From the IMG/VR virus record IMGVR_UViG_3300032007_000039: DNA of 64,000 bases. One strand, given 5' to 3'. The stretch comes from an uncultured virus (IMG/VR IMGVR_UViG_3300032007_000039) (lineage: Duplodnaviria > Heunggongvirae > Uroviricota > Caudoviricetes). Positions 7,723 to 48,688 of this stretch are shown here, piece after piece. The position numbers were made by a program, and so were the translations under genes. The notes beneath the pieces are model-generated. The model made no database searches and was not told the DNA's origin. It saw only the letters and a list, made by a program, of their open reading frames with translations. Position 1 is the stretch's first letter, and every line of letters begins with the position of its first letter.

Positions 7723-8243
7723 ATAGAAATATGGTTTTCTATTGTGTGGTTCAATGTTATTTGCAGACTTTTTATTTATCTTGTTGATATTCTAGGATAT
7801 TATCAAAAAAAAAGTAAAAAATTATATATAAAATTTAAGCGGTGGGTTCAACATTAAAACCCCTTTAAAATAGCCTAAAATCTTCATTAAAAATTGCACG
7901 GTTTTAGAATATGGTTTATTAAAAAATACTAAGAAAAATAATTGTTTTGAAGTGGAAAATTTAATAAACTAATATAAAATTTAAAATAATTTAATTTGAC
8001 AAGAAAAACCCCGTCCGAATGATAAAACATTTTACAGAATTACAAGATATTCTGTCAAAATTGTAAAATGTTTTATCAAAAAGCGGTAAAAATTAAAATA
8101 TAGATTGATTGACGTTAAAATTTGTTAAGAATATAAACAAAAAACGGTTAAATTGCCATGAAAACAAAAAAAATTAAAAAATTAGAACATTAAAAACAAT
8201 AATTTCGTTAATAAAAACAATAAAATTTTTAATAAAAAAGTTA

Positions 8244-8273
8244 TTGACAAAATCACTAGTACATGATATACTA
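8244..8273 (+). promoter_or_regulatory. sigma70/sigmaA-type promoter (TTGACA...extended -10), representative of the cassette promoters
   Basis: ttgacaaaatcactagtacatgatatact preceded by an A-tract UP element. Confidence 0.85.
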
Positions 8274-8331
8274 TATACAGAGTTAAGGGAAAGGACAATC
8301 GTCCGATAGTTCAAAACAGGAGGAATAAAAA

Positions 8332-8742
8332 ATGGAAACGATGAACGCACAGGTACAGGTCAATGTAGCTAACGAGCTTGCTATGGAGCTTGACAAAATC
8401 CGTAGCGCGAAAAAGGAACTCGCACGTCGCGAGAAGGAACTTATTTCTAAGTTCTATGAAGCAGGTATTCTGCATGATAACTACGAGCAGGAAGAAGTCA
8501 CGACGGATAACGTCGTTATCCGCAAAATCCCTGCCTTGTCGGGCAAACGCTATGACGTAGACAAGGCGCGTGCGCTTGCAGATAGCCTTGCTATCAGTCG
8601 CAAAGAGCTTGTCAATCGTGAATGGAAATTCACGGTCAACGAGGAAAAGCTAAACGAGCTTGTGAGTGAAGGGAAGATTAGCGAGGAAGTAAAAGATAGC
8701 CTTGCAATCAAGGCAAACCGCATTAAAGTAGACGTAAAATAA
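8332..8742 (+). CDS. hypothetical protein
   Basis: own promoter, AGGAGG RBS, terminator. Confidence 0.9.
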   Translation: METMNAQVQVNVANELAMELDKIRSAKKELARREKELISKFYEAGILHDNYEQEEVTTDNVVIRKIPALSGKRYDVDKARALADSLAISRKELVNREWKFTVNEEKLNELVSEGKISEEVKDSLAIKANRIKVDVK

Positions 8743-8750
8743 TCCACCAA

Positions 8751-8788
8751 CAGGCAGGGAGAAAAACTCCCTGCCTTTATTTTTTTTG
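8751..8788 (+). terminator. rho-independent terminator
   Basis: AGGCAGGGAG-AAAAA-CTCCCTGCCT followed by a T run. Confidence 0.9.
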
Positions 8789-9080
8789 TAATGTATTCTA
8801 ATCAGATTTTAAGGTTGATTGACCATTTGTAAAATGTTTTATAATTATAAACTGAATTGAAATAAAACATTTTACAGTATATAACCGCCGCCGAGCTATA
8901 CACTATTTTAGCGAATTGTAAAATGTTTTATACATAGCGAGGTTTTTATGTATACATGTATACATAAAAAATCTTTTGATTTATGGTTGACAAGTAAATA
9001 TAGGTGTGCTACAATATACTTGTAAGGTTGATAGAGAGACACCTTACAGAAACGGTTTAAGTATATAGGAGGAAACAATC

Positions 9081-9356
9081 ATGGAAAACATGGAACTGAA
9101 ACAGAACATTGTCAATGCTATTGAAACACTTGAAGAAGTTGAAGGGATTTCTTTGGAGGTGTGTGGGTCATGGCTATGGGTTGATGGTGATACCAAGCCT
9201 GTAAAGGATTTGATTAAATCCGTAGGTGGTAGATGGGCAGCAAAGAAGAAAAAATGGTATATCCGTCCTGAAGGGGCTAAATGGTTTCATAGGAAAGAGC
9301 AGGACATGGAACGTATTCGTGAAGGATACGGAAGTGTCATGGTAAAAGAAGTCTAA
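9081..9356 (+). CDS. small phage protein with a GSWLWV...RWAAKKKKWY domain (DUF5710-like)
   Basis: motif resemblance; promoter, RBS and terminator present. Confidence 0.8.
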   Translation: MENMELKQNIVNAIETLEEVEGISLEVCGSWLWVDGDTKPVKDLIKSVGGRWAAKKKKWYIRPEGAKWFHRKEQDMERIREGYGSVMVKEV

Positions 9357-9711
9357 AGACTTCATACAGGCAGGTGGAAAAATCCACCTGCTTTTATTTT
9401 TTGTAATGTATTCTAATCAGATTTTAAGGTTGATTGACCATTTGTAAAATGTTTTATTGTGAAAATTGATACAACAATAAAACATTTTACAAATATAGTT
9501 TATCTGTTTTTGTAAAATGTTTTATGATGTATAACTAGATGAATTTTTATAATATATTCTAATCTAATTTTAAAATTGATTGACAATGCGACAATTTTTT
9601 AATTAATCTTTTAGCAAAAAATATATAAAACATATTGACAAAAACAATATAGTAGTCTATAATGTATAGTGTAAGGTCAAGGAACAGAGTAAAGTGATAG
9701 GAGGAATTGTC

Positions 9712-9903: not shown

Positions 9904-10236
9904 AACAATCACAGAGGGCGAAAGCCCTCTTTTAATTTATCTTAAAATTTGATTAGACAAATTTTAAGATAAATTAGCTATTTGTAAAATGTTTTATAAA
10001 GTTATCAGTTTTCAAAATAAAACATTTTCCAATTTATTGGATAGGCAATTTTGTAATGTAAAATGTTTTATTACTCACGAATTGTACATAAACTATCTAT
10101 ATAATGAAAAAAAATTTTTTCAAAAAAATAAAAAAAGTATTGACAAACATATGCAGGTTTGATATACTTAAACTGTCGAAAGGCGATAGAGAGAAATCGC
10201 CTTTAGGGTTTATAAGATTTATGGAGGTATACTATT

Positions 10237-10923: not shown

Positions 10924-11370
10924 CCTTGCAAGAAGTTAGAGGGTTGAAAAAACCCTCTTTTTTTTTGTGTCTAAAATCGTTTCTAAGCGCGTTTAATTAG
11001 CAAGGGTATATAATCATACCTGTTTTGATTTTTAGACAGTCAGAAACGATTTTAGCGTGTGTGAGCGTGATATATAGCACGTAGTTTATCCACCATCAGA
11101 CACGATGGATTGATTCGATAAAAACATTATGTATATTTACATAAAACATTTTACAATTTGCATAAAACAGTTTTTTTGTAAAATGTTTTATTTACGATAA
11201 CTGCTACGGTTTGTAAAATGTTTTATCTATTCACACCTGCCAAAAAAATTTTCAATTTTTATAAAAAACCTATTGACAAAAGCCTGTAAAAGAGTATAAT
11301 AATAAGTGTCAAGGGGATAGAGAAACCCAAGACAAACGGTTCAAAGGTGATTGAAAGGATTGTGATTACA

Positions 11371-12078: not shown

Positions 12079-12442
12079 TGACGAAAGGAAGGGAATAAAA
12101 TCCCTTCCTTTTTTGTTTTCTATACTATCAGAAATCATCTCTAGCAGGTGTTTATCTATGATTAGGTATTCTGATACCTGTTAGCATTTTGAAATGACAT
12201 ACAAACAAAATAGGATGTAATAATCATTGTTACAAAATTGTGCAAGATAAAACATTTTACATTTTATGATTATGGATTGAAAATTTGTAAAATGTTTTAT
12301 CTTTGATTGCATACGCATATAGTATACATTTTTAGAAAAAGTTTTTTCTTGTATACATATAAAAACTATTGACATTGATACTAAAAAGAGTATAATAGTA
12401 AGTGTCAAAGGGAAATGGTTCAAACAAATGGAGGTTTTAGAA

Positions 12443-13088: not shown

Positions 13089-13378
13089 TTTGAGGGAAAA
13101 TGTTTACTGTAATAAGTACGGTTCTGCCAGAACAGATACATTAGGGGATGAGAAATCATCCCCTAATTTTATTGTCTAATTTTTATATAAGGTAATTTTA
13201 ATCTAGGTTGATTGACTTTAATTTATTTTTAATTATTGAAATGTTGTAAAATGTTTTATCTTAATTCATCAATAAAAATTTTTCAAAAAAATATACAAAA
13301 CATGTTGACAAATAATTTACATAGTGCTATACTATATTTGTAAGGTTGATAGAGATAAAATAAATGGAGGTAATCATT

Positions 13379-13612: not shown

Positions 13613-13926
13613 TTTAATCAGATGGGGAGTACTCCCCATCTTTTTTAATATAAAATATTAAAACATTTTACAATTTTTGTTCGGTATAATTTTTGTAAAA
13701 TGTTTTATGGCTTGACTATATGATTTTGTATATAAGATACATAAAAAAAGTATTGACAATGATAGCGCAGTATGTTATTATAAAGACAGTTAAGCGGTCA
13801 CAATCATTATTAAACACAAAAAATTTCAAAAAAAATAATAAAAAAATTCTTGACAAAATAACATATATATGATATACTAAAGTCAAGAAATGAGAGATAT
13901 GGTTCACAAGAAAGGAAGTAATTACA

Positions 13927-14220: not shown

Positions 14221-14450
14221 AATTCACATAGGGAGGGCGGAAGCCCTCTTTTTATTTGCCTTAAATTTTTTCTAATTAAATTTTAAGGTTGATTGACTAT
14301 TGTAATAAATTGATTTTTGTAAAATGTTTTATTCACTATACCTACTGAAAAATTTTTCAAAAAATATAAAAAAGTTCTTGACATACATAATATTATATGG
14401 TATACTGTTTACAGAGATAAGGAAATAGACAAATTCAGGAGGTAATTGAA

Positions 14451-14708
14451 ATGTACTACTACGTTAAAGAAGTTGCGTCTCGTGATGGGAAATTCAGAGG
14501 AAAAGAGGATATTAAAATCCGTAAATTCAAAACTTACGCAAGAGCGCAGATTGCATTTAACAAGAGCGCAAATGCTTTGCGTGAAATGATGGATAAAGCC
14601 CTTGCGAATGGCGCAGATTTTACGAAAGATGATAATAATGTAAGTCTGTTGATGTATTACAGTAACCGTTCGTATAGAAGGTTTGGCGTTACACTTTATA
14701 AGCATTAA
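14451..14708 (+). CDS. hypothetical protein, last plus-strand cassette before the convergence point
   Basis: promoter, AGGAGG, terminator. Confidence 0.85.
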   Translation: MYYYVKEVASRDGKFRGKEDIKIRKFKTYARAQIAFNKSANALREMMDKALANGADFTKDDNNVSLLMYYSNRSYRRFGVTLYKH

Positions 14709-14892
14709 AAAATACCTGCTAGAAACATAATCTAGCAGGTATTTTTTTTGTAATGTATTCTAATAAAGTTTTAATCTAGGTTGATTGACTATTGTAAAAT
14801 GTTTTATCAAATATCAAAATGTGAGCATAAAACATTTTACAGAAACACAAAAGTAAAAAAATACGTATGAATCATTCATACGTATTTGATAT

Positions 14893-16063: not shown

Positions 16064-16387
16064 CCTAATCATGTCCTTTCTTTTGATGGGTTGTTTTTCA
16101 ATTTCTGTATTTATTATAGCGCACAATTCGCAATTTGTCAATAGGTTTTTTATATTTTTTGATAAATTTAACCGAATAAAATGTGATAAATATTCGTATA
16201 AAACATTTTACAAAAATTGTTTGTATGTGGATTGTAAAATGTTTTATTTTAATATGCAAATAAAAAGGACGGATATTCAATATCCGTCCCAAAGAGGATT
16301 ATTCGTCCTCGTCATCACCATCAAACAGAGTGTCCCAACATTCCGCGCCCGTCCCGCTAATAAGCACCTCGCGCTCGTCAGCACCGT

Positions 16388-16774
16388 TCATTCCCATTCG
16401 ATATATGCGACACTCCCGCGCTTTTTAAGCACGAGCTTTTCATCGTGTTCAATCGCTATGTAAATCGGATTTGAAGAAAATAAGTATGCGTCAGGAATCT
16501 TATCCGTTGGTTCTACGTCCTGAATCTTTAAGACAAGAAACTCGTCGTTTCCATTGTCTCGATTCGCATTCCTTGTATCGAAGCTGGCCTTGGTTATGGC
16601 GCAACGCTCATAACCATCTCCGCCGGAACGGATTTCTTCCACATCCATATCACAGAGAAAATTTTCGATGGCAGTTTCAACCTCGTCTTGCTTTCTCCAG
16701 TCTCCGCGCTGGAACGCTCCGAAGAGGTCTTTGTCGAATACGAATGTAAGTTTCTTCATGTCACTTGACAACAT
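16388..16774 (-). CDS. hypothetical protein, locally higher GC
   Basis: CAGGAGG RBS before ATG 16774. Confidence 0.75.
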   Translation of the reverse strand: MLSSDMKKLTFVFDKDLFGAFQRGDWRKQDEVETAIENFLCDMDVEEIRSGGDGYERCAITKASFDTRNANRDNGNDEFLVLKIQDVEPTDKIPDAYLFSSNPIYIAIEHDEKLVLKKRGSVAYIEWE

Positions 16775-17540
16775 AGTACATACCTCCTGTGAACTATCTC
16801 TTGTTCCCTTCGACACTTATATAATAGCATACTACGGAAAGTTTGTCAACACTTTTTTTATAAAAAATGCAAAAAAAATTTGCATCAACGTATGAAATTT
16901 GTCAGACATTTTACATCTAAAACCTTCAAAAAACATTCCTTTCTACTAAATTGAATGTTTTCTCTACCAATATATTATCAAATAATGTGTACCAATATTT
17001 TTTGTATCAAAAATGTCTGAAAATTGTTTATGCTATAAAAAGCCTTGCGATTATCATATCGCAAGGCTTCTCTTTATTCTAAATAAATATATATATATGA
17101 ATTACTTAGCCCATTGGAATCATGTCCCTTCTATATGGATTGAAACCTAGCTTTTCTTGAACCATCGTGGTTAACATTTCTAAATAACAATAATAATATA
17201 TATGTTCTCACTCGCTAGAGTTTATTCAGCTTTTTCTTCATTCTGCTCACTTCCTTTCCCCTTGGATTGATTATATTGTATCATAACTGAACTACTTTGT
17301 CAACAGTTTTTTAAATTTTTTTCTTTAAGGTATCAACATCATAAACAGTTCCGTTCAATTGTTTCATTTCCTTATCTCTGATTATATGATACCACACACA
17401 AAACAATTTGTCAACACTTTTTTATAAAAAATGCAATTTTTTTGACCATAAAACATTTTACAATTTATAAAAACAGAATTTTTGTAAAATGTTTTATTTT
17501 GTTTCAATAACAAAAAAAAGAGAGTTTCCCCTCTTTTTCA

Positions 17541-17876: not shown

Positions 17877-18229
17877 TATGTATCAGCCCTTTCAATTTGC
17901 TTAACCTTATGTATTAAATATAACACAGAATATACATTTTGTCAACATTTTTTTATTGACGAAATAAAAATTTTTGTATTTATAGCACTACGTTCAAAAC
18001 ATCATACGCATAAAACACATGGTCTAAATCACTTTATTTTTGTCTCTAAGGTGATTTAATTATAAAATAGGTATAGCTATATGCACTGATAAATAAAATC
18101 GCTTATACGCGAAATAGGAAGCAACTAAAGTAATTACACAACTTTCACAAAATTCATTTTGTAAAATGTTTTATATATGAATAATGATAAAGAGGTGAGA
18201 TTTTTATTCTCACCTCTTTATCATTTTCT

Positions 18230-18727: not shown

Positions 18728-18991
18728 TTAGTAAACCTTTTGTTTCTCTCTATGGTTATATAGTACCATATCTGATTTCGTTTGTCAAGAAGTTTTTTAT
18801 ATTTTTTTGATTTTGATTTTTGTACTTTTTTCTCTTGACACTTATATAGTATCATATATGTATAACTATGTCAAGATATTTTTTATATTTTTTTCTATAA
18901 TAAAACATTTTACAAAAATTATAATATATAAAATTGTAAAATGTTTTATCTCTATATATAGAAAAAAGCAGGGATTTCCCTGCTTTTTTTC

Positions 18992-19309: not shown

Positions 19310-19506
19310 TTTGAAAACCTCCTATTAACGAACCATTTCCTTAACTCTGATATTAGTATAGCATGTATTGATATATTTGTCAATAACTTTTTTATATTTT
19401 TTTTTGATAATAAAACATTTTACAAAAAACACATAAAACGCAATAATGTAAAATGTTTTATGATAATATATCAAAAAAAGAGGAATTTAATTATCCCTCC
19501 TGTTGG

Positions 19507-20055
19507 TTAATCCATATAAAACTCTTTACTACCGCAAGTGCAAGTGTAATTTTTTGCACCATTTCTCATAACCGCTTTGACAAATTTTGACATTTTATGA
19601 TAACGCCACGTAGCACCACACTTAGCACAATGGCAAACATAGGTTTTACGATTAACATTGGCTTTTACAACCTCTCTTACGCTATCATATGCTTCTTTTG
19701 ACGCATACGTGCCAATTTTTGTTCCGTAAATACGGTTTACCCTACGTGCCATTTCTTGAAACTTTGCGCCATGATGATTCATTTTACAATATGGCATAGC
19801 ATGAATTAGCTCATGTAAAAGAGTTTCCTTAATAGCTTCTTTGCTACCCTCTTTTACAAGGATATTAGAAATCTCAATGGTAGCCGTTTTCATTCTGTAG
19901 TTACAGGAACAAGTACCATATACCTTATATTTTCTTGCATTGAATTTAACAGAAATCGGATAAACAGAAAACCCATATTCAATCAATTCTTCTCTATATG
20001 CGTAAAGCATATCAACAATTTTCTGTTTTTGTTCATTCGCAATTTCCGTAACCAT
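19507..20055 (-). CDS. SprT-like zinc metalloprotease with C-terminal Zn ribbon
   Basis: LLHELIHA...HHGAKFQ...YVCHCAKC...CTCG. Confidence 0.85.
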   Translation of the reverse strand: MVTEIANEQKQKIVDMLYAYREELIEYGFSVYPISVKFNARKYKVYGTCSCNYRMKTATIEISNILVKEGSKEAIKETLLHELIHAMPYCKMNHHGAKFQEMARRVNRIYGTKIGTYASKEAYDSVREVVKANVNRKTYVCHCAKCGATWRYHKMSKFVKAVMRNGAKNYTCTCGSKEFYMD

Positions 20056-20254
20056 TTTTTGAAACCTCCTAAATTTGAACCATTTGTTTCTCTATGCTTA
20101 TATACTACCACAAATTGATAATTTTGTCAACAGTTTTTTTATAAGCAAATTTCGTGCTTAAAACATTTTACAAAAAAACGTATTGACGAATAAATGTAAA
20201 ATGTTTTATTTCGATATATCAAAAAGAGGAAGGGTAAAATCTCCCTCTTTTCTT

Positions 20255-20653: not shown

Positions 20654-20817
20654 GATGTATTTCCTCCTGTATTTCAAACCGTGTTTCTCTCTATGGTTAT
20701 ATATTACCATAGAACGGATATTTTGTCAATAGGTTTTTTATAAAAAATATCTTTTTATAAAACATTTTACAAATCCATACAAATAAAAAAAGCAGATACA
20801 TAAGCATTTGCCACAAA

Positions 20818-20979: not shown

Positions 20980-21189
20980 CTTAAATCTACCTCCAAAGTG
21001 TTTAACCTTTTGTTTTTCTCTATGGTTATATATTATCACATCTTACACGTATTGTCAAGTATTTTTTTATACTTTTGTTGATAATAAAACATTTTACAAA
21101 TTTGTGTAAATTGATTTTTGTAAAATGTTTTATGTTTAGTATATCAAAAAGAGGTGGAATATTCCACCTCTTCGTTAGAAATATTGTAA

Positions 21190-21633: not shown

Positions 21634-21658
21634 GTTTCATTACCTCCATTCAAAACAA

Positions 21659-21913: not shown

Positions 21914-22015
21914 GAAAATCCTCTCCTTTGTAGAACCTGTTGTTTTCTCTATGGTTATATATTATCATACTATAATCTATTTGTCAATACTTTTTATATA
22001 AAAATTTTATTCAGT

Positions 22016-22435: not shown

Positions 22436-22452
22436 GATAAAAACCCTTTCAA

Positions 22453-22824: not shown

Positions 22825-23132
22825 TTTGAACAACTCCCTTCTTGTTTCAATATAAGTATAACACACATACATACATAAAGTCAAGTATTTTTTTATTGCA
22901 ATTAATTTTATAAAACATTTTACAATATCTATGTATATCAATCTGTAAAATGTTTTATCTATTTATTTGTAATAAAAATAATTACATTGTAGAATTGCCT
23001 ACAAGTGTTATTAAAACACTACTACATATAAATACTCGCATACTAGTATAAAACGCGCTACAGGCTAATTCTAGTGTATCAGAATAACAAAATAGCAGGG
23101 AATTTATTCCCTGCTATCATTTGAATTGCCTA

Positions 23133-23825: not shown

Positions 23826-24312
23826 GATGAATTACCTCCATTGTTTGAGAACCATTCGATTAGGTTTCTCTCTTTCCCTAACCTTTGTCTATATTATAAC
23901 GTTTATCGGATGCTTTGTCAATAGTTTTTGTATAAAAATATAAAAATTTTTTGTTCGTCTGTTCGTCTGAAAGTATAAAACATTTTACAATTTTGGATTA
24001 AAACATTTTATTTGTAAAATGTTTTATATCGTGAAAATAAAAAAAAGAGTAGTATTACTACTCTTATGCTATTAATCTTCTTTTTCACAAATTTGTAAAT
24101 AATCGGGAGAAATATTTTCTGTATATTCAAAGGAATAGGGTTTTTCACCTTCTTCCAAAATAATGTTTTTATCGTTATGAAGATGGGATTGATTCAATTT
24201 AGATATATCAATTTTGAAAACTACGATTTTATCGTTTTCAATTGGTACAGAAATTGTCAGACATTTTATTTTATGGGACAAAAAAAGAGAGGGTTTTTCC
24301 CTCTCCATTGAA

Positions 24313-26068: not shown

Positions 26069-26301
26069 TATGATTACCTCCTATAAAACCCAATTGCTCT
26101 CTTGTGAAGTTTCTTTTGTTTTACTTCTCTTGTATTGTACACCTAATCGATAAAAATTTCAATTTATATACAATTATGTATTTATGATAAATCGGTTAAA
26201 CACCTTATAAAACATTTTACAATTATTCGCTTGTATAAAATTGTGTAAAATGTTTTATATTAAAACAAAAAAAACAGGGAGGAAAATCCTCCCTGTTTAC
26301 G

Positions 26302-27642: not shown

Positions 27643-27812
27643 AATTATATCCTCCTAGTTTATCAATAGAACATTTTACAATTTTTCTTTTTATTCCTAC
27701 ATACCATATAGTATATTTTTTTTTGTAAAATGTCTTACACAAAAAGAAAATTTAGTAGTAAAAATAGATATTACTAAAACAACAATAGGAAATATAAAAA
27801 ATCCTAACATAA

Positions 27813-28769: not shown

Positions 28770-28944
28770 TTTAATTTACCTCCATCTTATCACCTTATTT
28801 GCATTATACCATATACAAAAAATCTTGTCAATGAAATTTTGTATTTGTAAAATGTTTTATATTATATACAAAAAAATCAACGATAAAACATTTTACAAAA
28901 AATTTTGTTTAAAAATTAAAAAGAGGGAAAAACCCTCTTTTTAA

Positions 28945-29442: not shown

Positions 29443-29596
29443 TTACCTCCTGTAATAAACCTGTTGTTCCTCTCTATGGTTATATATTACCATAGATTAT
29501 TTATTTTGTCAAGAACTTTTTATAAAAAGTATAAAAATAAAACATTTTACAAATATTATTATACTAATCACAATTTGTAAAATGTTTTATGAACAA

Positions 29597-30243: not shown

Positions 30244-30757
30244 TTCAAATACCTCCTATTGATTACCTTTAACTTTTCTCTATGGTTATATATTACCATA
30301 CATTATGTATTTTGTCAACATCTTTTTTATAAATCTCAATAAAAATTTTTGCACTAATAACAAGACCAACAATAAATCCAATCATAATTTCCATTTTATA
30401 CACACCTTCCTTTCATCACCTATATCATACCATATAATTACATGTTTGCCAAGATATTTTTTATCAAATAAAACATTTTACAATTTGCCCTACCCATTTT
30501 TATTTGTAAAATGTTTTATTTGATAAAGGCATTATAAAAACCGTGCGGATAGGGAATATCCTGCACGGTTCTCTTTTTATAATTTTATAATAAATCTAAA
30601 CTTAATATATAATTTCTATTTACTACATCTTACTCATTCCTTTCAAAATTGTTATTCACGCTAACACACTAGAAGTTTATCGGCATTTTATATCAAACAA
30701 ATTTATTATAATTTATATTAACCTGTCCGTGATGAACGACGAATAGATAGCATATCC

Positions 30758-31640: not shown

Positions 31641-31902
31641 TTTAATTACCTCCAATTTGTAGAACCTGTTGTTTTCCTTTCGATGGTTATATATTATCAT
31701 ACTACAATCTATTTGTCAATACTTTTTTTATAAAAAATAAAAAATTTTTTCAAACCTATATGATGAATAAAACATTTTACAATTTAGATAGATACAAAAA
31801 AATCCTGTATGGATTTTACACCATACAGGATTTATATTAAGACACCCGACCAGAACGGCAACCTGTCCAAATATTTATTGTAAAGTGCCATAGTATTTTC
31901 TC

Positions 31903-33120: not shown

Positions 33121-33249
33121 TATATCCTCCTGTCTATTGGTCTCTGAACCTTAACTCTGTATATAGTATAGCATAGGTAGAACAAGAAGTCAATAGTAAA
33201 TCAAAAAATTTTTTATAAACCATGATACAGAAACGTTTCACAAAACATT

Positions 33250-33729
33250 TTACAATCCAAAAAACAATCTTCTTGCTTTGTTATGACAAGTAATAAAACT
33301 ATTTTTATACCAATTTGGAATATACAAATAGAATATTTCAAATAAATCTATGGGTGAAAAATTTATCCTAGAACTTGTAAATCTAGGAAATATATCTTGA
33401 CAAAAACTATTTATATCAAAATTACGATTACCATATTTTTTATACCAAAACCAATCTCTGTCTTTACGTTCTCTATTTTGTTTTCTTCTAAATATACGAA
33501 TTGTATAAAAACTATCCATGGATTGCAAAAATGTATGAGGATATTGTCTAAATTGTTCAGTAAACCATACAAAATATTTCGTACCACGAATATTGATAAC
33601 TATCTGATAACGATTTATATATACTTCTGAAAAATAATATTCTTTTTGTATACGCTTTACTTTAGATATATGTTTTTCAGATATAATATTATCTTCTAAA
33701 GCACTATTGTTTATTGTTATAGCTTCCAT
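33250..33729 (-). CDS. hypothetical protein (ends FFGL)
   Basis: ORF track. Confidence 0.75.
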   Translation of the reverse strand: MEAITINNSALEDNIISEKHISKVKRIQKEYYFSEVYINRYQIVINIRGTKYFVWFTEQFRQYPHTFLQSMDSFYTIRIFRRKQNRERKDRDWFWYKKYGNRNFDINSFCQDIFPRFTSSRINFSPIDLFEIFYLYIPNWYKNSFITCHNKARRLFFGL

Positions 33730-35015: not shown

Positions 35016-35299
35016 ATTTCAAAGTTTTTCTTTGTATATTTATTATACCATATTAATTTTTTTTTGTCAAGAACTTTTTTCTTTTCTAAAACCTCTGTTC
35101 TTGATTACATATATATCTTATCACACATTGTCATAAAAGTCAATGGTTTTTTGAAGTTCTTTTGTTCTTGAAGTATCTGTTTTTCTTTACATATATACTA
35201 TCACAAACAAACAAGTTTGTCAACATGCTTAAAGTTTTATATGTAAAATGTTTTATTCTATATAAAAGAAAAAGGACGGTCTTTTGACCGCCCGCCCGA

Positions 35300-35599: not shown

Positions 35600-35846
35600 T
35601 TTGTGTTCCTCCATTTTCTCTAGTGAACTGTATCTCTTAACTGTCTATATAATACCATATCACACAATCATTGTCAATACTTTTTATATAAAAATTTTTC
35701 TTGATTTTGTGCTTTTAAGTTGATTGACTTTTTACCATAAAACATTTTACAAAAAAATTTTTAGTACCTGTTATAAAGTTTGACTTTTTGACTATTTAAT
35801 CAATGGAAAAAGGAAAAAGAGTATTTAATATAAAGAGGTAATAATA

Positions 35847-36251
35847 ATGTTTGGTTTAATTCCTTTTGAAAACAAAGAAATGGATAGTATTTTTAATGAT
35901 GGATTTTTTGATGGATTTAAGTTTCCACAAGTACATCAAGATATGAAATGTGACGTAGAAGATACAGAAAAGTCATATATTGTTACTGCGGAGGTTGCAG
36001 GTTTTGACAAGAATGATATTAAAGTATCAACTAAGGATGACGTTCTGACAATTGCAGTTGAACACAAGGAAGATACAAAGGATGATAAGAAGTATCTTTG
36101 TCACGAAAGAAGTTATAGCAAGGTGTCACGTAGCTTTAGACTTCCTAACATGAACAAGCAGGATATTAAAGCTAATTTGAAAGATGGTATTTTAACCATT
36201 ACTGTTAATAAGGACGAAAAACAGGAAGATAAGTATATCGCTATTGAATAA
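35847..36251 (+). CDS. small heat-shock protein (Hsp20/alpha-crystallin)
   Basis: DVEDTEKSY...AGFDKNDI...ERSY..VSRSFRLP...IKANLKDGILTITV. Confidence 0.95.
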   Translation: MFGLIPFENKEMDSIFNDGFFDGFKFPQVHQDMKCDVEDTEKSYIVTAEVAGFDKNDIKVSTKDDVLTIAVEHKEDTKDDKKYLCHERSYSKVSRSFRLPNMNKQDIKANLKDGILTITVNKDEKQEDKYIAIE

Positions 36252-36398
36252 TTAGATATAATAAAAAAGAATAGTACATATAATAAAACTGTTATGATTT
36301 ATAAAAGAGACTTGCAAAAAAGTCTCTTTTTTGTTATACTATCAACGTAGAATATTTTTATTCTATGTGTTTTATTATAACAATGAGGTGATGTAATC

Positions 36399-36647
36399 AT
36401 GGTTAATTTAATAGAGCAATCTCACAAGCGTTTGAGTTTGAGAGAGTGCGGAGGTTTAGCAAAGATAGCACAGAAATATCATGCAAGTATTAAGGTTTAT
36501 AATGATAACAATTCTGCCAATGCAAAAAGTATATTAAGTGTTTTAGACTTATGTATTTTACCGAATCAAATATTGGTAATTAACATTAGTGGAGTAGATG
36601 AACGACCAGCATTTAATGAAATTAAAAAGTATTTACGCGAATTATAA
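36399..36647 (+). CDS. HPr-family protein lacking the catalytic His15
   Basis: AQKY.ASI.V...ANAKSILSVLDL...I.ISGVDE..A; LSLRE in place of LHARP. Confidence 0.8.
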   Translation: MVNLIEQSHKRLSLRECGGLAKIAQKYHASIKVYNDNNSANAKSILSVLDLCILPNQILVINISGVDERPAFNEIKKYLREL

Positions 36648-36887
36648 TTAAATAAAACGTAAACGGATAATGTGAAAACACATTATCCATGAATGGAAAG
36701 TGTATGCAAGATAGGCATATTTTTTTTATGCCTTTTTCACAATGTAAAATGTCTTATCTAATTTTTTACATAAAACATTTTACACTATGAAAAAAGAAGT
36801 AGTTTTTAATATGCGCAGGAAAAACAGGATTTTTGAATTATACGCTTTTATTTCATTTATATAAAAAACTATTCAAACAAGGGTGAT

Positions 36888-37166
36888 TTGAAAATGATAA
36901 ATGGAATAAAGGAGGTATTAGAAGCCTCTAAAGAAATTTGGCGTGAAGATTATATGGATGTGTTTTATAATATGAAAGATAAAAAAGTTTTCTATGTTAT
37001 AAAACCGTTGAAAGATGTATCAAAACATTTTTATAACATACGTGAATTTGTTAATATCAATACAGTATTTGTTACGAGCATTTATTCAAATTATAAATTC
37101 AATGAAACCATTTTAGAAAATTTGGTTAATAAAGCAGTAGCAGATTTTATAAATATACACAAATAA
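36888..37166 (+). CDS. hypothetical protein
   Basis: ORF track. Confidence 0.7.
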   Translation: MKMINGIKEVLEASKEIWREDYMDVFYNMKDKKVFYVIKPLKDVSKHFYNIREFVNINTVFVTSIYSNYKFNETILENLVNKAVADFINIHK

Positions 37167-37205
37167 AACATATAAATAAAAGAGACTAGATAGCTAGTCT
37201 CTTTT

Positions 37206-37601
37206 TTATAATCCGCTATATAGTGTAATAGGTAAAATTACTTTATGATAGAATAGTTTTTTATATCCATCAATGCAATCTTTTGCGTCATTTTCTTTTT
37301 CAAAACGTATTTTTTTATTCATATAATCATACGTCCCATTATATTTTCTTATTCTATTATCTGTTCTGTGTTCAGAAACAATGTTATATCTACAAATATT
37401 TATCCCGAATAATATATCAATGTCAATGTAATAAGATATATCATCTTTCTTATAAATAAGGAAGGGATATGTCATTGATGTATACATAAGATATTTTATT
37501 ATGCGTTTTCTAAAAATGTCTTTTTCTTGTTCTGTATATGTTTTCCATTTTGTATGTTTCGTATTTTTCTTTACATAGTACTCGATGGTATATCTTTTCA
37601 T
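37206..37601 (-). CDS. hypothetical protein (ends YSGL)
   Basis: ORF track, GGGGGA RBS. Confidence 0.75.
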   Translation of the reverse strand: MKRYTIEYYVKKNTKHTKWKTYTEQEKDIFRKRIIKYLMYTSMTYPFLIYKKDDISYYIDIDILFGINICRYNIVSEHRTDNRIRKYNGTYDYMNKKIRFEKENDAKDCIDGYKKLFYHKVILPITLYSGL

Positions 37602-37676
37602 AGTTATCCCCCAATACCATTATAACAAAAATGATTTGATATAAAAAGAGGGAATATATTTTCCCTCTCCTACTCG

Positions 37677-38105: not shown

Positions 38106-38442
38106 GAACCTTTCTTCAATAGCGTCTGTTTATCTCTATGGTTATAGTATAGCAAACTATGTGCAATTTGTCAAGCACTTTTTTATATATATTTCGTAGC
38201 AAGCAAGATTGTAAAATGTTTTATCAATAAACAATCTATATTCCGTTTTACTTTATAAACGGCATAAGTATTATGCTATAACCAGCTCGTATAGGCTTAC
38301 ACTTCACCTGTAACGTGCCTTAATAGCAAAACAGGTATAGTTATATGTATTGACTGAAAAACTGCAAAAGAAAACGCTATCTATGATTACGTGTAGCAAA
38401 TAAAAAAGCAGGAAGGGTATTTCACCTTCCTGTTCTATTTTG

Positions 38443-39018: not shown

Positions 39019-39302
39019 TTTTCCTTTCTTTTCTTAAAAATGAACCTTATCTCTTACTGTCTTTATTATATCTGATATGGAACGTTTTGTCAATAACTTT
39101 TTTATTCATTTCTTGATTTTTTTTATTCCCCCCCCTGTCTATGGTTATAGTATATCAAACTACAAGTACTTTGTCAAGAAGTTTTTTATATTTTTTGGCA
39201 GAAAAATTTTTGTCATAAAACATTTTACAATTTATATACATATACAAAATAGGGAGAAATGATTTTCATTTCTCCCCAATTTGATTTATTTATATCTTTT
39301 TT

Positions 39303-39509: not shown

Positions 39510-39688
39510 TTTTGATTACCTCCATCAATTCATATAATTTGTTTCCATTTCCTTATCTCTGTAAACAGTATAGCATATAGCACTATGTTTGTCAAGATGT
39601 TTTTTATATTTTTGGCAGAAAAATTTTTGTCATAAAACATTTTACAAAAAGTCTATAGAAAAAGCAGGGATACCTCACCCTGCTTTTA

Positions 39689-41470: not shown

Positions 41471-41595
41471 TTGCAACTACCACAACAAAAATATTTATCA
41501 ACTATGTACAGTATATCAAATAATTTTCTATATGTCAATAAAAATTGCTATCATAAAACATTTTACAATAAAAAATAGAGGATATATATCCTCTA

Positions 41596-42825
41596 TCACG
41601 TTAAATCTTTTGTTTTTTGTAAATATGTTTCTATTTCGTTCATAGTTATATATCTACCTGCTTTTGTTTTTATCAAACTAATAGGCATATGATTTTTCAA
41701 ATTAAACATATATCCTTGATATTCTTTTGGTACTAATTTTTGTACTGACTTCCCATAATCAGATTTATTATTTATATTCTTCACTATATCATAATATCTA
41801 TATATCATATCACGTTTTATACGCATATATGTATATATTTTTTCTGCTTTTTCATTCAAAACAGTATGATATACAGTAGGAACTTTAGCCAACAAATCAT
41901 CATAATAATCATCTGCTATAGCTTTAATAATTGTTTTACTAGATGTTTCATCTGATAGTATATGACTTAATTCCAAATAATCAGTACACTTTAGTTTATA
42001 TCTATGATTATCAATTGTGATAACCCAACCCTCTTTATCCGAACCTTTGTAAGTATCACGATTACACATAACTTCATTGAATGATTTTGTATCTATTTGT
42101 GTCATAGGAATATGATACTTATCAGAAAATTCTTTTTTAATATACTTATATCCATATTCTATTCCATTTGTGACATTACGTACACCAATCAGATAAATAC
42201 CCTGTTGTGATTTATCATAGATAACTACATGCCTATCATTCAATGAAATATATTCAAAAATGAATGTTTTATCAGGATTATTCATAATCATTTGTTTGTG
42301 ATTATATGATAGCATAGTTTCTGCTTCTGCCAATCTAAAATTTTGTTCTTTATCTAATGACCCTGTACCACCTAACACAAAATGATTATCATAATATCTA
42401 ACAGACAAAAGTGAACCATCTAGTTTATTTGTTATTTCTACATCTTTTGCATTTTTCAAATATGATTGAATTTTATCAATATATGTTTCTTCAATCTCGC
42501 CTATATTGAAAAATTTTCTAAATGGACATAATACAATTGTATCTTTTTCTACATCTATTGTAAGACCACGCATTTCACGATAAATAGAATTTTCATTACG
42601 ATATATATCATTGTCTCCACCTTTAATAAGTGAATATTTGAATAAATTATATGTTCCATACACAATGATATTTACGCATTTCAAAAAGTTATTATATTTA
42701 TCTGTATTTAAATAGATACACATATCTTCTACACTATATGTATCTAGTTTATCTATTTGCTTTTTGTTCATATACTGATATTTTATCTTCATAACATAGT
42801 TATATGCTATATTCCAATCAAACAT
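41596..42825 (-). CDS. T4 Rnl1-like RNA ligase
   Basis: PFRKFFNIGE, motif I KLDGS, FEY, EGWV, KLK. Confidence 0.85.
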   Translation of the reverse strand: MFDWNIAYNYVMKIKYQYMNKKQIDKLDTYSVEDMCIYLNTDKYNNFLKCVNIIVYGTYNLFKYSLIKGGDNDIYRNENSIYREMRGLTIDVEKDTIVLCPFRKFFNIGEIEETYIDKIQSYLKNAKDVEITNKLDGSLLSVRYYDNHFVLGGTGSLDKEQNFRLAEAETMLSYNHKQMIMNNPDKTFIFEYISLNDRHVVIYDKSQQGIYLIGVRNVTNGIEYGYKYIKKEFSDKYHIPMTQIDTKSFNEVMCNRDTYKGSDKEGWVITIDNHRYKLKCTDYLELSHILSDETSSKTIIKAIADDYYDDLLAKVPTVYHTVLNEKAEKIYTYMRIKRDMIYRYYDIVKNINNKSDYGKSVQKLVPKEYQGYMFNLKNHMPISLIKTKAGRYITMNEIETYLQKTKDLT

Positions 42826-42987
42826 ATTGTATCACCACCATATACAATCATATCATTTATAGAAATATTTGTCAATCAAAATTTGTAAAATGTTTTATAC
42901 CAAATCAAATTCCAAATCATAAAACATTTTACAAATATCATAAAATTAAAAAGGAAAGGTTTCCCCTTCCTTGTACTTTATCAACGC

Positions 42988-43497: not shown

Positions 43498-43788
43498 TGT
43501 AATTACTTCCTTTCATACGTGAACCTTATCTCTATGGTTATATATTACCACATCTTAGATACTTTGTCAAGAACTTTTTTATTTTTTCTTGGTTACTGTA
43601 TCTATTGCCTTTCGACACTTATATAGTAACACATATCAATATATTTGTCAATAGTTTTTGTATATTTTTTTTGAAAAGATTTTATTCGTATAAAACATTT
43701 TACAAAAATCAATATACACAAAATTGTAAAATGTTTTATACCAAATATTGTTTATCAAAAGAAGGAAGAACTATTTCTTCCTTCTTGC

Positions 43789-44163: not shown

Positions 44164-44253
44164 AATATTATCTCCTATATAAAACATTTTACATTATTAT
44201 TATATCGGTATCTACCACTATTTATTATATTTATAGAAGGGTGGAATACAATA

Positions 44254-45410: not shown

Positions 45411-45434
45411 GCCAATCACTCTTTCTAACAAATA

Positions 45435-45935: not shown

Positions 45936-45951
45936 ATTTCAACTTCCTTTC

Positions 45952-46434
45952 TTAACGAAAATATTCAACATAATTATCAATAATATATTTTGTATCTTTA
46001 TAAATCTCTTTATCAAACTTATTCACTAAAACAGTTGGTTCATTATCAGAAGGATTTTCCTTCCAATAATCAATGTCTATCCAATCCTCAAATTCTCCCC
46101 AAAAAGCATTATAATCTTTTGTTTTACCTCTGATATCTATAAAATTATCTTCTTCATCTATACAAAAAGAATGAATAAGGCTTTTTTCGTATGAATACAC
46201 ATTTACAATTTTATATCCAAACTGTTTATGTAATCTTAATGCAAAAATATTGCAAAATCCATGAAGAAAATCATACAGACTTAATTTATTTTCAGAGTTT
46301 GGAATAAAACAAGGTTCTTTATCATTGTTAATAACAATAATATCTTCCAAAAAAGAAAAATCTGTATTTTTATTATCATTAAATATTACTGCCCCTTCAC
46401 GATAAAAATCTTGTAATTCCATATCTTTGAACAT
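45952..46434 (-). CDS. hypothetical protein (HGFCNIFA..LH...HSFC...DIRG)
   Basis: cassette. Confidence 0.8.
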   Translation of the reverse strand: MFKDMELQDFYREGAVIFNDNKNTDFSFLEDIIVINNDKEPCFIPNSENKLSLYDFLHGFCNIFALRLHKQFGYKIVNVYSYEKSLIHSFCIDEEDNFIDIRGKTKDYNAFWGEFEDWIDIDYWKENPSDNEPTVLVNKFDKEIYKDTKYIIDNYVEYFR

Positions 46435-46633
46435 TGTAACTCATTCCTTTCAATACTGTTTATCTCTATGGTTATAGAATATCACATATATAGCTTTTTG
46501 TAAAGATGTTTTTTATATATTTTTGAATTACAAACTTTTGAATAAAACATTTTACAAAAGTACATTAAACAAAAATGCAAAATGTTTTATTTTTATATAT
46601 CAAAATAGGCAGGATATTTCACCTGCCTATTTT

Positions 46634-47161
46634 TTATTTCTTGATACGCTTACGATTTTTCAAACCGATACGAAATGAATAACCGTTATCCATAACATAT
46701 TTCAAGTAGTCTCTTAATTCCTGTTCATTGTAAATACCTCTTACACAAATCTCTTTTGCAATCATACAATCTGTGTTATCTTTTTCATTATACATGATAT
46801 AAAGCAAATTGCCTTTATCCACAAACTGTTTCACACTATCTTTAGCTCGTTTAACGCTATTCCACAAACCATTATAAAAGTCAATAACCTTAATGCTATC
46901 ACTTGTATGACTTGTGAAAATCTGTGTATCTTCTTCATCACCGAACCACTTATCACAAGTATTGACAAGATACTTGTGCCATTGTGCTACCGTCTTAACA
47001 GGTTTTTCACCATCGAAAGAAAACCATAAGCGTTCATAAACCTCCCTTCTTGTTGTATAATTAAACTCTGTACAATTCGATGAACCAATGCACCAAAGTA
47101 AAAGAACTTCATCGTTTGAAAGTTTAATGCCTACACGGTCATACATAATTGAATAACTCAT
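46634..47161 (-). CDS. hypothetical protein
   Basis: GGGAGG RBS before ATG 47161. Confidence 0.85.
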   Translation of the reverse strand: MSYSIMYDRVGIKLSNDEVLLLWCIGSSNCTEFNYTTRREVYERLWFSFDGEKPVKTVAQWHKYLVNTCDKWFGDEEDTQIFTSHTSDSIKVIDFYNGLWNSVKRAKDSVKQFVDKGNLLYIMYNEKDNTDCMIAKEICVRGIYNEQELRDYLKYVMDNGYSFRIGLKNRKRIKK

Positions 47162-47441
47162 TTCAATTACCTCCCAATCGAACCTGTGAACCTCTTTATG
47201 TTTATATATTATCACATCTTAGATACTTTGTCAAGAATTTTTTTATTTTATTTCTCTCAAAACATGTTTTGTTTCTATGGTTATATATTACCACATATAT
47301 ATAATATTGTCAACAATTTTTTTATATAAATAGATATAATAAAACATTTTACAAACAAACTAGTTCCATTGAAAAAATGTAAAATGTTTTATATCAAAAT
47401 CATTTAGTAAAGCGATAGGAAATTTCCTATCGCTTTACCCA

Positions 47442-47813
47442 TCATATTTGTCTCATTCGTTTATCAACACTTTGCATACATTCAATCGCTTTTTGTCTGA
47501 TTGATTTCTCATGACCTGTATAATAACGTTTCAACAATTTATCGTATTGCATACAAAAAAAGTCTTTTTCGTTACTAGTTAATGTCTCCACATCAAAATC
47601 AATCTGAACGTTTTTACCGAATTGCTTTCGCATAATATCAGTAAAGCTAGTTTGCATACCGAATTTGATAAACGTTTGTTCATCGAACAACATCGAACTT
47701 GCTCGTCGTTTTACATCTAAGCAATTTGCATAGCAACAAACGATAACACTCTGCCCATTGTCGCTCAAGAACTTCAAAACTTGTTGACGAATATGCTTAT
47801 TATCCATAAGCAC
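47442..47813 (-). CDS. hypothetical protein, paralog of 48087..48440
   Basis: V.KFL.DNG...YAN.LD.KR...TF...MQ..F...M..FG. Confidence 0.85.
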   Translation of the reverse strand: MLMDNKHIRQQVLKFLSDNGQSVIVCCYANCLDVKRRASSMLFDEQTFIKFGMQTSFTDIMRKQFGKNVQIDFDVETLTSNEKDFFCMQYDKLLKRYYTGHEKSIRQKAIECMQSVDKRMRQI

Positions 47814-48086
47814 ACCTCCTATTTAATTGTTAGAGAACTTATTCGGAACAATCTCTCCTGTTCCTTACATTGTACATGATAGCACGCTAGCTACATATTG
47901 TCAATGGAATTTGTATAATTCTAATATGCTTCTAATGATAAATTTTACAGATAAAACATTTTACAAAATATCAGTATCATTGAAAAAGTGTAAAATGTTT
48001 TATTCATTTTATAATTTTATCAGATAAAACATTTTACAAAAAAAGCAATATAAAAATAGGGAATGAAAAATCATTCCCTATGATAA

Positions 48087-48440
48087 TTATGATATATTAT
48101 CAATTTTTTTAATCAGTTCTTTTGCATCGTTGATAACATGACTTTTATCATTATCAAAATACTTTTGTCTTAATTGTTCATACCTAAATTTCAATGTAGC
48201 ATATTGAACATCATACTTACCATCATTAAAACATTCTTGCATAAATTGTGTTTCTACTTGTCTACCAAATTTACGTTTCATTGTAGAAATGAAATATTGT
48301 TGCATAGCCATATTAACAAAAGTATCGTTATCAAATTTAAGCATTTTCTTTCGTTTCAAATCTAAGTAGTTTGCATATCCACCAACAATTAATTTTTCCC
48401 CATTATCATTGAGAAACTTAATAACTTCATCTTTAAGCAT
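48087..48440 (-). CDS. hypothetical protein, paralog of 47442..47813
   Basis: similarity, GGGAGG RBS. Confidence 0.85.
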   Translation of the reverse strand: MLKDEVIKFLNDNGEKLIVGGYANYLDLKRKKMLKFDNDTFVNMAMQQYFISTMKRKFGRQVETQFMQECFNDGKYDVQYATLKFRYEQLRQKYFDNDKSHVINDAKELIKKIDNIS

Positions 48441-48688
48441 ACAAATTACCTCCCTATTAAACCTACTATGATTTTATCAAAAATCCATATATATGTCAAG
48501 ATAATTTTTTTGTAAAATGTTTTATGTTATACTTCTATATAAAACATTTTACAAATTGTTGTTTTGACCTTTTTTTGTAAAATGTTTTATTATATGGCAT
48601 ATGATAATTATTATCAATAATACAATAAAAGTATATCTTTGAGCAATATTAAAAACTGCTTTTTTTTGAAAATCAAAAATTTAGGTAT

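Follow-up and report, generated by a model that had tools for sequence, protein, structure and literature searches.

A 15-bp intergenic box in a 40-kb array of small-gene units of an uncultured jumbo phage: a putative transcription-regulatory site

The DNA analyzed here, referred to as the window, is a 64,000-nucleotide stretch (bases 158,472-222,471) of a single 281,186-bp contig from an uncultured virus of the Caudoviricetes (IMG/VR record IMGVR_UViG_3300032007_000039). Between window positions 8022 and 48592 it carries an array of about 65 called genes in self-contained units, separated by 41 clusters of one 15-bp sequence, ATAAAACATTTTACA, which we call the box; 74 array copies had at most one mismatch. 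Genes were taken from a simple open reading frame (ORF) picker, and promoters and terminators were called by consensus. In gene direction, a typical junction reads stop codon, G+C-rich hairpin with a T run, 10-15 bp, box copy F, spacer, box copy R, A/T tract and promoter; it ends with a leader, drawn from a small set of conserved ones, followed by the ribosome-binding site and ATG. Copy F is ATAAAACATTTTACA and copy R is TGTAAAATGTTTTAT, both read in gene direction. The clusters are as follows.

8022..8076: '+-' cluster at the divergent left edge of the array
8828..8931, + strand: RFR
9443..9525, + strand: RFR
9983..10071, + strand: RFR, middle copy with 1 mismatch
11141..11226, + strand: FRR
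12247..12300, + strand: FR; boxes identical in three diverged phages, spacer different
13245..13259, + strand: single R
13658..13708, + strand: FR
14318..14332, + strand: single R
14793..14841: '-+' cluster at the convergent point of the + and - gene blocks
16198..16247, - strand: FR
17448..17497, - strand: FR
18160..18174, - strand: single F
18900..18949, - strand: FR
19410..19461, - strand: FR
20158..20209, - strand: FR, representative junction (terminator 20230-20247, F 20197-20211, R 20158-20172, promoter 20102-20130, gene 19507-20055, SprT-like)
20757..20771, - strand: single R
21084..21133, - strand: FR
22910..22958, - strand: FR, upstream of the four-gene unit 21190-22824
23975..24027, - strand: FR with an extra overlapping 12-mer copy
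26207..26258, - strand: FR
27666..27680, - strand: degenerate copy (1 mismatch), with a second degenerate 12-mer at 27726
28846..28897, - strand: RF, F 14 bp from the -35 hexamer
29537..29590, - strand: FR
30468..30519, - strand: FR
31767..31781, - strand: single R; relative c404b has a cassette inserted here between terminator-plus-R direct repeats
33240..33254, - strand: single R (1 mismatch), overlapping the last codons of gene 33250-33729
35242..35256, - strand: single F
35737..35751: single copy at a divergent junction, edge of the 1.9-kb block inverted in relative c405
36743..36784, + strand: RF
38210..38224, - strand: single F
39215..39229, - strand: single R
39632..39646, - strand: single R
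41553..41567, - strand: single R
42884..42933, - strand: RF, upstream of the RNA ligase gene 41596-42825
43690..43739, - strand: FR
44179..44193: single copy at a divergent junction
46542..46590, - strand: FR, second copy with 1 mismatch
47339..47392, - strand: FR
47951..48038, - strand: RFR; arrangement preserved in c405 and c404b
48511..48590, - strand: FRF at the right edge; arrangement preserved in c405 and c404b

The 37 clusters lying between same-direction genes (tandem clusters) showed the patterns FR (16), R (9), RFR (4), F (3), RF (3), FRR (1) and FRF (1). Both orientations were present in 25 of them and a single copy in 12, and two more single copies stood at divergent junctions. In 17 of the 37, the cluster lay 40-60 bp from the upstream stop. 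Neighboring exact copies of the 12-mer TAAAACATTTTA formed 21 '+-' pairs, 19 of which had a start-to-start spacing of 35-41 bp, along with seven '-+' pairs at 27-36 bp and 3 same-strand pairs. The spacers between paired boxes (~20-26 bp) were unrelated in sequence between copies. Paired arms form perfect 14-17-bp stems without bulges, and the core reads GTTTTAT.

Allowing at most one mismatch, we found 84 matches to the 12-mer in the window, compared with 6.78 expected (standard deviation 2.64, maximum 14; 100 shuffles). An alignment of 71 exact 12-mer copies revealed an invariant core of 15 bp with sharp limits on both sides: the 12-mer was preceded by A in 68/71 copies and followed by C in 70/71 and then A in 70/71, and the 16th base was A in 56/71. 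Genome-wide, 70 of the 73 exact 12-mers fell within genome positions 166.5-207 kb (window 8,023-48,589); two distant copies, bare and within coding DNA, lacked the flanking bases and are chance matches. Exact 15-mers numbered 68 in the 281,186-bp genome, 67 of them in window 8,022-48,592 (14.5% of the genome) and one at 2,586 (2586..2600, - strand, upstream of gene 2137-2451), and a further copy with 1 mismatch lay outside the array at 2652-2666. There was no box near structural or other non-array genes. Almost all array copies (73/74) were intergenic, the exception being the one at 33,240 that overlaps the last codons of a called gene, and a box was present in 41 of the 50 intergenic gaps of at least 90 bp. 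Both the anatomy of the junctions and the confinement of the box were thus observed directly.

An earlier note on this DNA had described a 40-kb row of cassettes separated by a 14-bp, almost exclusively intergenic site in inverted pairs. The repeated sites proved to be real and their intergenic placement was borne out by the genome-wide scan; likewise, the junction sequences display the proposed unit order of terminator, box(es), A/T tract, promoter, leader, ribosome-binding site and ORF. The site is indeed conserved, but its invariant core is 15 bp long. The abrupt halt at 48.6 kb stands, whereas the range given for the array omitted the copies at 2,586 (exact) and 2,652 (1 mismatch). Inverted pairs are frequent, yet 12 of the 37 tandem junctions hold a single copy.

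The phage itself is, by the PHROGs matches of large ORFs across the contig, jumbo myovirus-like. These matches comprise tail sheath, portal, terminase (with inteins) and lytic tail proteins, and furthermore a DNA helicase, an NAD-dependent ligase, NrdD and several DNA-modification enzymes. The genome has a G+C content of ~28%, falling to 22-23% in parts of the flanks, and public runs containing the sequence are bovine-gut, manure and faeces metagenomes. A near-identity search of the array and a flank against 50,697 deposited phage records detected no close relative and only two 58-bp matches. A tRNA scan found 0 genes, and Rfam at gathering scores gave 0 matches.

Pfam scans covered ~360 ORFs, those outside the window being 60 aa or longer; the limit on E was 1e-2 for the array and 1e-3 or 1e-4 for the remainder. 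In the array, 43 of the 65 proteins had no Pfam match at E <= 0.01, most of the 22 matches being under Pfam's curated score, and 43 of 65 had no PHROG at E <= 1e-4. Products that could be named were two SprT-like proteins, HicA-like, DpnD/PcfM, DUF7227, DUF1281_C, DUF6927, HSP20, HPr-like, an RNA ligase, a GNAT acetyltransferase and a formate/nitrite-transporter-like protein. The G+C content per array gene was 0.22-0.46, compared with 0.20-0.28 for the backbone, which suggests that the array genes have varied origins. Conserved core genes flank the array; right of 48.6 kb these are dCMP deaminase, amidase and NrdD.

The promoters of the units are near-consensus TTGACA-17-TATAAT, often with TRTG ahead of the -10 hexamer, which is a Gram-positive trait, and A/T tracts lie ahead of the -35 hexamers. 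Strong sigma-70-type promoter matches (at most 1 mismatch) numbered 106 in the genome. Forty were in the array (14.5% of the length), and the 66 elsewhere had no box; the box therefore marks the array region, not all host-type promoters. Terminator-like sites were also in excess (28, compared with 6.3 +/- 2.9 expected; 14.8-34.7 kb). Promoter-leader repeat families of 56-88 nt occurred in up to 25 copies with 62-86% identity. RNA-library contigs from three rumen libraries of three studies had coinciding upstream ends at 18,822-18,824 and 22,823-22,834 (three runs each), ~15 nt inside the starts predicted from promoters 18,874 and 22,884, while a DNA contig crosses both places. These ends are weakly suggestive of use of the predicted promoters; this RNA evidence consists of assembled contigs, and RNA libraries may contain DNA.

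Several further observations concern the same regulatory DNA. Many units have two tandem near-consensus promoters 79-192 bp apart before one gene, at the following positions.

12369/12561
13753/13850
17414/17303
18874/18788
30452/30318
39177/39093
43651/43570
47313/47234

Downstream of the -10 hexamer, a few 5' leader families are common to many units (reverse complements of ..TATATAACCATAGAGAGAAAC.., ..ACAGAGTTAAGG.. and ..AAGTGTCAAGGGGA..), none with an Rfam match. Examples are given here.

20683-20738: leader-family example
21012-21067: leader-family example
29466-29521: leader-family example
30272-30327: leader-family example
43524-43579: leader-family example

The + strand block has a further conserved stretch of ~40 bp (..TTCTAAT..ATTTTAAGGTTGATTGAC..) ahead of R, which served as deletion homology in c405.

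8758-8842, + strand: stretch with TTCTAAT..ATTTTAAGGTTGATTGAC ahead of R
9373-9457, + strand: the same
9913-9997, + strand: the same
14232-14316, + strand: the same
14773-14807, + strand: the same

Directly upstream of the array's first unit, the - strand at window 48680-48850 has three stretches of seven or eight consecutive C (ACCCCCCC-like) within 150 bp, in a spacer whose G+C content is otherwise 20%. Finally, the 766-bp gap 16775-17540 contains no convincing gene and three strong promoter matches (17414, 17303 and 16849). It shows a 122-bp joint that 'goes back' (17316 to 17195) in RNA and DNA runs, and nowhere else in the stretch is the summed depth of RNA contigs as high (481, run X8). 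This gap may encode a small RNA or peptide.

The relatives compared were c405 (43 kb of the array region), c404a (16.4 kb), c404b (13.7 kb) and four short contigs. Selection on the box was analyzed at orthologous junctions with flanks less than 90% identical, in 63 copy comparisons with three relatives and using 40-bp flanks. Box identity exceeded that of the two flanks in c405 (0.94 versus 0.69/0.71; 24 copies), c404a (0.95 versus 0.74/0.73; 23 copies) and c404b (0.97 versus 0.72/0.73; 16 copies). In the 5-bp bins adjacent to the box, identity was 45-66%, and spacers between identical boxes differed in sequence and length among relatives. We conclude from these alignments that the box is under strong purifying selection. 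The idea that it has no function of its own, with gene conversion maintaining the similarity of copies left over from module duplication, is hardly credible: the junction modules are indeed repeated and recombining, but conversion would not leave 15 invariant bases beside such bins, and the longer promoter-leader repeats are only 62-86% alike.

The box is also oriented and phased with respect to the promoter. The promoter-proximal copy was R in 30/37 tandem clusters (p = 1.9e-4). Distances from the R end to the -35 hexamer fell into the classes 14-15, 24-27, 33-38, 44-47, 53-59 and 68 bp, and a Rayleigh scan over periods of 7-15 bp peaked at 10.5 bp (R = 0.64, p ~5e-6; 30 sites); among 20,000 random sets, 1 was as strongly phased (p = 5e-5). 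The sequences between R and the -35 hexamer differ from site to site. In the relatives, 45 sites with non-identical intervening sequence showed the same distance classes and a peak at 10 bp (p = 4e-7). Assuming that the -35 hexamer starts at -35, the R pseudo-dyad lies near -57, -67, -78, -88, -98 and -110. Such one-face spacing is typical of factors touching RNA polymerase, as in class I activation at CRP sites. One-face contact with RNA polymerase is also described for phi29 p4 (PMC3100819). From selection, orientation bias and phasing to the -35 hexamer, all three observed directly, we conclude that the box is functional in itself and probably acts in transcription.

The relatives aligned to the window at 65-100% identity in mosaic order. 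The core adjoining the array was uniformly less than 82% identical to c405, while the array contained blocks of at least 95% identity between blocks of low or no similarity. Because of this difference, we conclude that, by the alignments, units have been exchanged recently between distinct phage backbones. Best alignments per relative were chained and each change of neighborhood was scored. Of the 60 adjacent pairs of high-scoring segment pairs, 42 were non-collinear. Gain, loss, relocation and inversion of cassettes between relatives are frequent, and the mosaicism is seen directly. The pattern F-N14-32-R was absent from the viral contig collection and from 185,579 species genomes (one each); among metagenome contigs, its only carriers were the contig analyzed here, one identical to it, and diverged relatives. 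Bacterial genomes gave scattered matches to the single 16-mer, one per genome among the matches listed. A host regulon was rejected on these two grounds.

Several joints could be read at the sequence level, breakpoint resolution otherwise being 20-60 bp. Window 21,036-21,929 was lost in two relatives, with a 36-37-bp overlap inside the promoter-leader repeat. In c404b, a unit inserted at window 31,767 is bounded by ~65-bp direct repeats (terminator hairpin plus R), and unit 14,451-14,708, absent in c405, lies between two direct repeats of ~41 bp plus R. Gene 8,332-8,742 stands behind a different promoter in c405, and the joint is therefore in the leader. Some joints were gene-precise without any repeat (window 16,382 to 16,765). 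A 1.9-kb block, 35,705-37,613 (HSP20, HPr-like and two small genes), is inverted in c405, with 91% identity overall and 99-100% in sub-blocks; we rejected a box-driven origin of this inversion, because a box is near only one of its two ends.

Junctions of this kind are known from T4-type phages. According to two descriptions (PMC2839356, PMC4122927), their PeSL elements (promoter-early stem-loops) combine sigma-70-type early promoters and an AT-rich tract with stem-loop terminators, lie in hyperplastic regions beside small genes without known homologues, and differ between relatives by insertion, deletion or replacement of units, the joints falling in repeated regulatory sequence. Exchange between neighboring PeSLs also gives rise to mini-circles. 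Here, too, there is a sigma-70-like promoter with an AT-rich upstream tract (40 of the 106 promoter matches are in the array) and a stem-loop terminator in the same intergenic element. The region is likewise hyperplastic, core genes flank it, and its genes mostly lack known homologues (43/65 without Pfam and 43/65 without PHROG matches); indels and replacements among relatives are joined in repeated regulatory sequence, namely promoter-leader and terminator-plus-box repeats. In contrast to PeSLs, however, the hairpin lies upstream of the promoter instead of overlapping it, and the junctions have an invariant, oriented, -35-phased 15-bp box, which does not appear in the portions of the PeSL descriptions available (PMC2839356, PMC4122927). 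Moreover, the phage here is an uncultured 281-kb rumen phage, likened to T4-type phages by its junctions. By that analogy, architecture and shuffling match PeSL elements and not integrons.

With moderate confidence, we read the box as a cis site for a lineage-specific, putative DNA-binding protein acting on host-type early promoters in PeSL-like junctions. On this reading, the array is a hyperplastic accessory (early-type) region of self-contained units, in each of which a strong host-type promoter and a leader precede one to four small genes and an intrinsic terminator follows them. A lineage-specific protein on the R copy may modulate RNA polymerase at the adjacent promoter from a fixed helix face. 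Since the promoters are near consensus and have upstream A/T tracts, coordinated shut-off, repression or tuning of ~40 promoters seems likelier than activation; we infer both binding of a protein to the box and the direction of its effect. The second, inverted copy F behind the terminator could serve cooperative binding with R or block read-through. As to the shuffling, the composite junctions would provide 40-90 bp of repeated homology, through which general homologous recombination (the pathway we infer) may add, delete, move and swap units, and such swapping would take place between co-occurring related phages, as with PeSLs. The earlier note had offered a phage-wide operator system as one alternative and an integron-like system as the other. 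Of these, the operator alternative has the stronger support, from selection, placement, orientation (30/37) and phasing, but it is confined to the 40-kb array.

Several points weigh against this regulatory reading. No cognate protein was found, and Pfam detected no repressor-type helix-turn-helix protein in the ~360 ORFs. Nine of the 50 gaps of at least 90 bp have no box, and at least 5 of the 9 have a promoter match. In 7/37 tandem clusters, F is nearest to the promoter, at 8-35 bp. The F-to-R spacing is loose (35-41 bp); a variation of this size exceeds half a helical turn and speaks against a rigid complex occupying both copies. A site centered ~57 to 110 bp upstream of the start would be in an unusual position for a repressor. 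The phasing sites are not independent, because modules are duplicated and relatives share ancestry, and with each distance value counted once, p is 1.5e-3. RNA contigs of two runs span the box pair 20,158-20,211. Finally, genes, promoters and terminators are predicted calls.

Candidates for the binder were weighed individually. The only sequence-specific DNA-binding domain found by Pfam was in a sigma-70 region-4 protein, whose family (155 proteins at E <= 1e-3) is present on many large phage contigs. We rejected it as the box binder, given that the family is widespread and the box pair is confined to this phage's relatives; its probable role, for the same reason, is that of a general sigma factor, likely a late one. 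Behind two triple clusters lie paralogous genes of 121 and 117 aa (47442..48440, - strand; no family found), which are weak candidates for the cognate protein. As a regulator this pair was set aside: it matched no Pfam or PHROG family, the Atlas model was poor, with a predicted local distance difference test score (pLDDT) of 0.54, feature matches were at most 0.76, and structure matches had TM scores of at most 0.50. A hairpin or cruciform as the working form of the box was rejected as well, since 12 tandem clusters are single-copy and loops are 18-22 nt; as single-stranded DNA, the pairs fold at -9.7 to -13 kcal/mol. Sparse cover of box clusters by RNA contigs was not taken as evidence: among the pieces listed, 3/24 overlapped an exact copy (with 997 further pieces), and the libraries possibly contain DNA.

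The alternative that survives best, though we hold it to be unlikely, is a roadblock or insulator, in which a protein bound to the box in either orientation halts read-through or antisense polymerase and thereby insulates the units, much as elongation is stopped at repressor-bound stoperators of cluster A mycobacteriophages. It would explain the position directly behind terminators, the 40-60 bp from stop to cluster in 17/37 junctions, and the presence of the box, in both orientations, at 41/50 junctions. A roadblock does not need helical phasing to the -35 hexamer, however, and strong intrinsic terminators are already there; single tandem copies are mostly the promoter-facing R (9 R versus 3 F; p = 0.15, weak). 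The 15-bp asymmetric site in short intergenic spaces also resembles the 13-bp stoperators (PMC9283540). Cluster A mycobacteriophages (L5, TipsytheTRex) have 13-bp asymmetric sites in promoter regions and short intergenic spaces, which are genome-wide in temperate phages, single, co-oriented and bound by the immunity repressor (PMC9283540). In how it would work, the array comes closest to this system; the likeness lies in dozens of copies of one short asymmetric site that are intergenic, correlated in orientation with transcription and read by one phage-encoded protein (an assumption for the box). The box differs from these sites: it occurs in one region alone, its copies mostly form inverted pairs, and they stand behind terminators, with phasing to the -35 hexamer. 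As to orientation, the proximal copy is R in 30/37 clusters, and both orientations are present in 25/37. Pfam scans detected neither a repressor-type helix-turn-helix protein of a temperate phage nor an integrase, which also speaks against a roadblock of the stoperator kind.

Another role of a bound protein at the DNA level appears improbable; the protein would mark the segment for compaction, for shielding from host nucleases or silencing, for replication, or for pausing during genome entry. The confinement of the box to one 40-kb segment and the strong selection on it are compatible with such a role, as are genes typical of incoming mobile DNA (two SprT-like, HicA-like, DpnD/PcfM, DUF1281_C, DUF6927, DUF7227), but the strict terminator-promoter placement, the orientation bias and the -35 phasing indicate transcription.

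Site-specific recombination, the other alternative of the earlier note, we regard as distinctly improbable. An unrecognized recombinase would excise, capture or invert units at the box, as in integrons or shufflons, and invariant asymmetric sites in both orientations at nearly every cassette boundary would suit it. Some rearrangements end at boxes: 13/84 ends were at most 5 bp away (in c405, for example, window 14,323 is linked to 12,283), and c404a has an inverted insertion whose two ends lie at or near clusters. These numbers do not exceed the intergenic baseline, though, either within 5 bp (13/84 versus 12.9%) or within 25 bp (25/84 versus 26.5%, p = 0.54; 9.5% of the whole region is that close to a box), and 9/42 rearrangements had no box within 100 bp of any end. 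Resolved joints lie in longer promoter-leader or terminator-plus-box homologies, and active inversion would hardly leave gene orientation and the F-then-R order so uniform. In a second DNA run, joints were often at cluster edges, though most sides were only 20-24 letters long; such joints at cluster edges (DNA run X4) probably stem from related strains matching the box alone and were not used as evidence.

In line with the earlier note, which had recognized no recombinase or obvious cognate regulator, Pfam found none in the ~360 ORFs; for recombinases this includes the serine and tyrosine types, integrases, resolvases and invertases. The sole transposases belong to IS200/IS605-type elements, and a link between these and the box was rejected on account of their GC-rich end hairpins, which are unrelated to it. 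One such element, with a Y1 transposase and a 543-aa ORF matching a PHROG transposase family, is at genome 21,886-23,944 (L002:1886-3944), and a second, solitary OrfB_IS605-like gene is at genome 233,175-234,263 (L009:13175-14263). REP/REPIN doublets, which spread as single units with a conserved spacer and are associated with a Y1 (RAYT) transposase, are not matched either: spacers are unrelated between copies of the box, and the sole Y1 transposase belongs to the IS200/IS605 copy with its unrelated GC-rich end hairpins.

Integron attC sites are imperfect palindromes with bulged bases and a GTTRRRY-type core, and they flank promoterless cassettes that depend on a common promoter and the IntI tyrosine recombinase. 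The array shares with integrons a row of small units separated by imperfectly palindromic sites. It differs in that its units have their own promoters and terminators, arms are perfect and bulge-free, single sites are common (12/37), no integrase is present and breakpoints are not concentrated at the box beyond the intergenic level. An integron-like cassette system is accordingly not supported. A variant, in which the box is the site of an unrecognized phage enzyme excising and capturing promoter-gene-terminator units, with the inverted pair as crossover and phasing as a secondary matter, is disfavored by the evidence and very improbable, although breakpoints are resolved to 20-60 bp and the majority of the phage's proteins fall into no known family.

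We are similarly very doubtful that the box is a promoter, or part of one, for a phage-specific apparatus (middle sigma factor, appropriator or phage polymerase), so that R would drive the downstream unit later. R is directed at the downstream gene in 30/37 junctions, the invariance is like that of phage-polymerase promoters, the box has -35-like TTTACA and -10-like TAAAAT hexamers, sigma-like and NusG-like proteins are encoded, and RNA contigs of two runs have their starts at 20,188 and 20,219, positions that fall within one box pair or upstream of it. The inverted partner, however, would fire antisense into the upstream terminator, and an independent promoter needs no phasing with a sigma-70-type -35 hexamer. 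RNA-contig ends from three studies fit the TTGACA/TATAAT promoters at two units, non-array genes including structural ones have no box nearby, and the sigma-like protein is on many large phage contigs, whereas the box pair is only in relatives.

Returning to the box as a regulatory site, two further Gram-positive systems invite comparison. SPO1, a Gram-positive myophage, has a host-takeover module in which short operons under strong host-type promoters carry small early genes; we know of no shared invariant upstream box in SPO1, and the array here is three times longer. For phi29, the source gives a p4 consensus CTTTTT-15 bp-AAAATG and describes a regulator acting on promoters of a Gram-positive-host polymerase via A-tract-rich inverted repeats at 4 sites (PMC3100819). 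The box pair reads CATTTT...AAAATG, which is a resemblance only: its arms are ~27 bp apart and not 15, each arm is a full 15-bp site also found alone, and there are ~70 sites instead of 4. Pfam scans detected no family of a known regulator, p4 included. In the literature searched, the box sequence gave two matches, both unrelated, and none in a relevant context, and there was no account of such an array for jumbo-phage early promoters or for rumen jumbo phages.

If the regulatory reading is true, one small site would tie ~40 strong host-type promoters of a jumbo-phage accessory region into a single regulon and offer a 15-bp bait for a new transcription regulator from an uncultured rumen phage lineage. 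The PeSL picture of regulatory junctions doubling as recombination homology would extend to rumen phages, with recent cassette exchange seen between backbones only ~70% identical. The units, with their strong promoter, leader, terminator and putatively insulating box, could be natural portable expression cassettes, and the array genes are candidates for host-takeover or anti-defence functions.

Some features lie outside the array. The nrdD gene is in pieces (window 58035-63991, continuing past the window; L009:1149-3776), interrupted by HNH genes at 60592-61140 (with NUMOD4) and 61835-62593 and by a LAGLIDADG intein at 62678-63991; just downstream of it are an HNH gene (58035-58631) and a GIY-YIG gene (59006-59386). 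Elsewhere in the genome, a 1,569-aa ORF at L006:3846-8555 has terminase large-subunit matches and two intein/Hint regions with LAGLIDADG domains. ADP-ribose-processing enzymes, proteins with microbial-type PARG and NADAR domains, are encoded close together (L011:4962-5816 and L011:9825-10334). Furthermore, the genome encodes three DNA methyltransferases (C5, N6/N4 and Dam-like) together with many radical-SAM and glycosyltransferase genes, which suggests that the phage DNA is modified.

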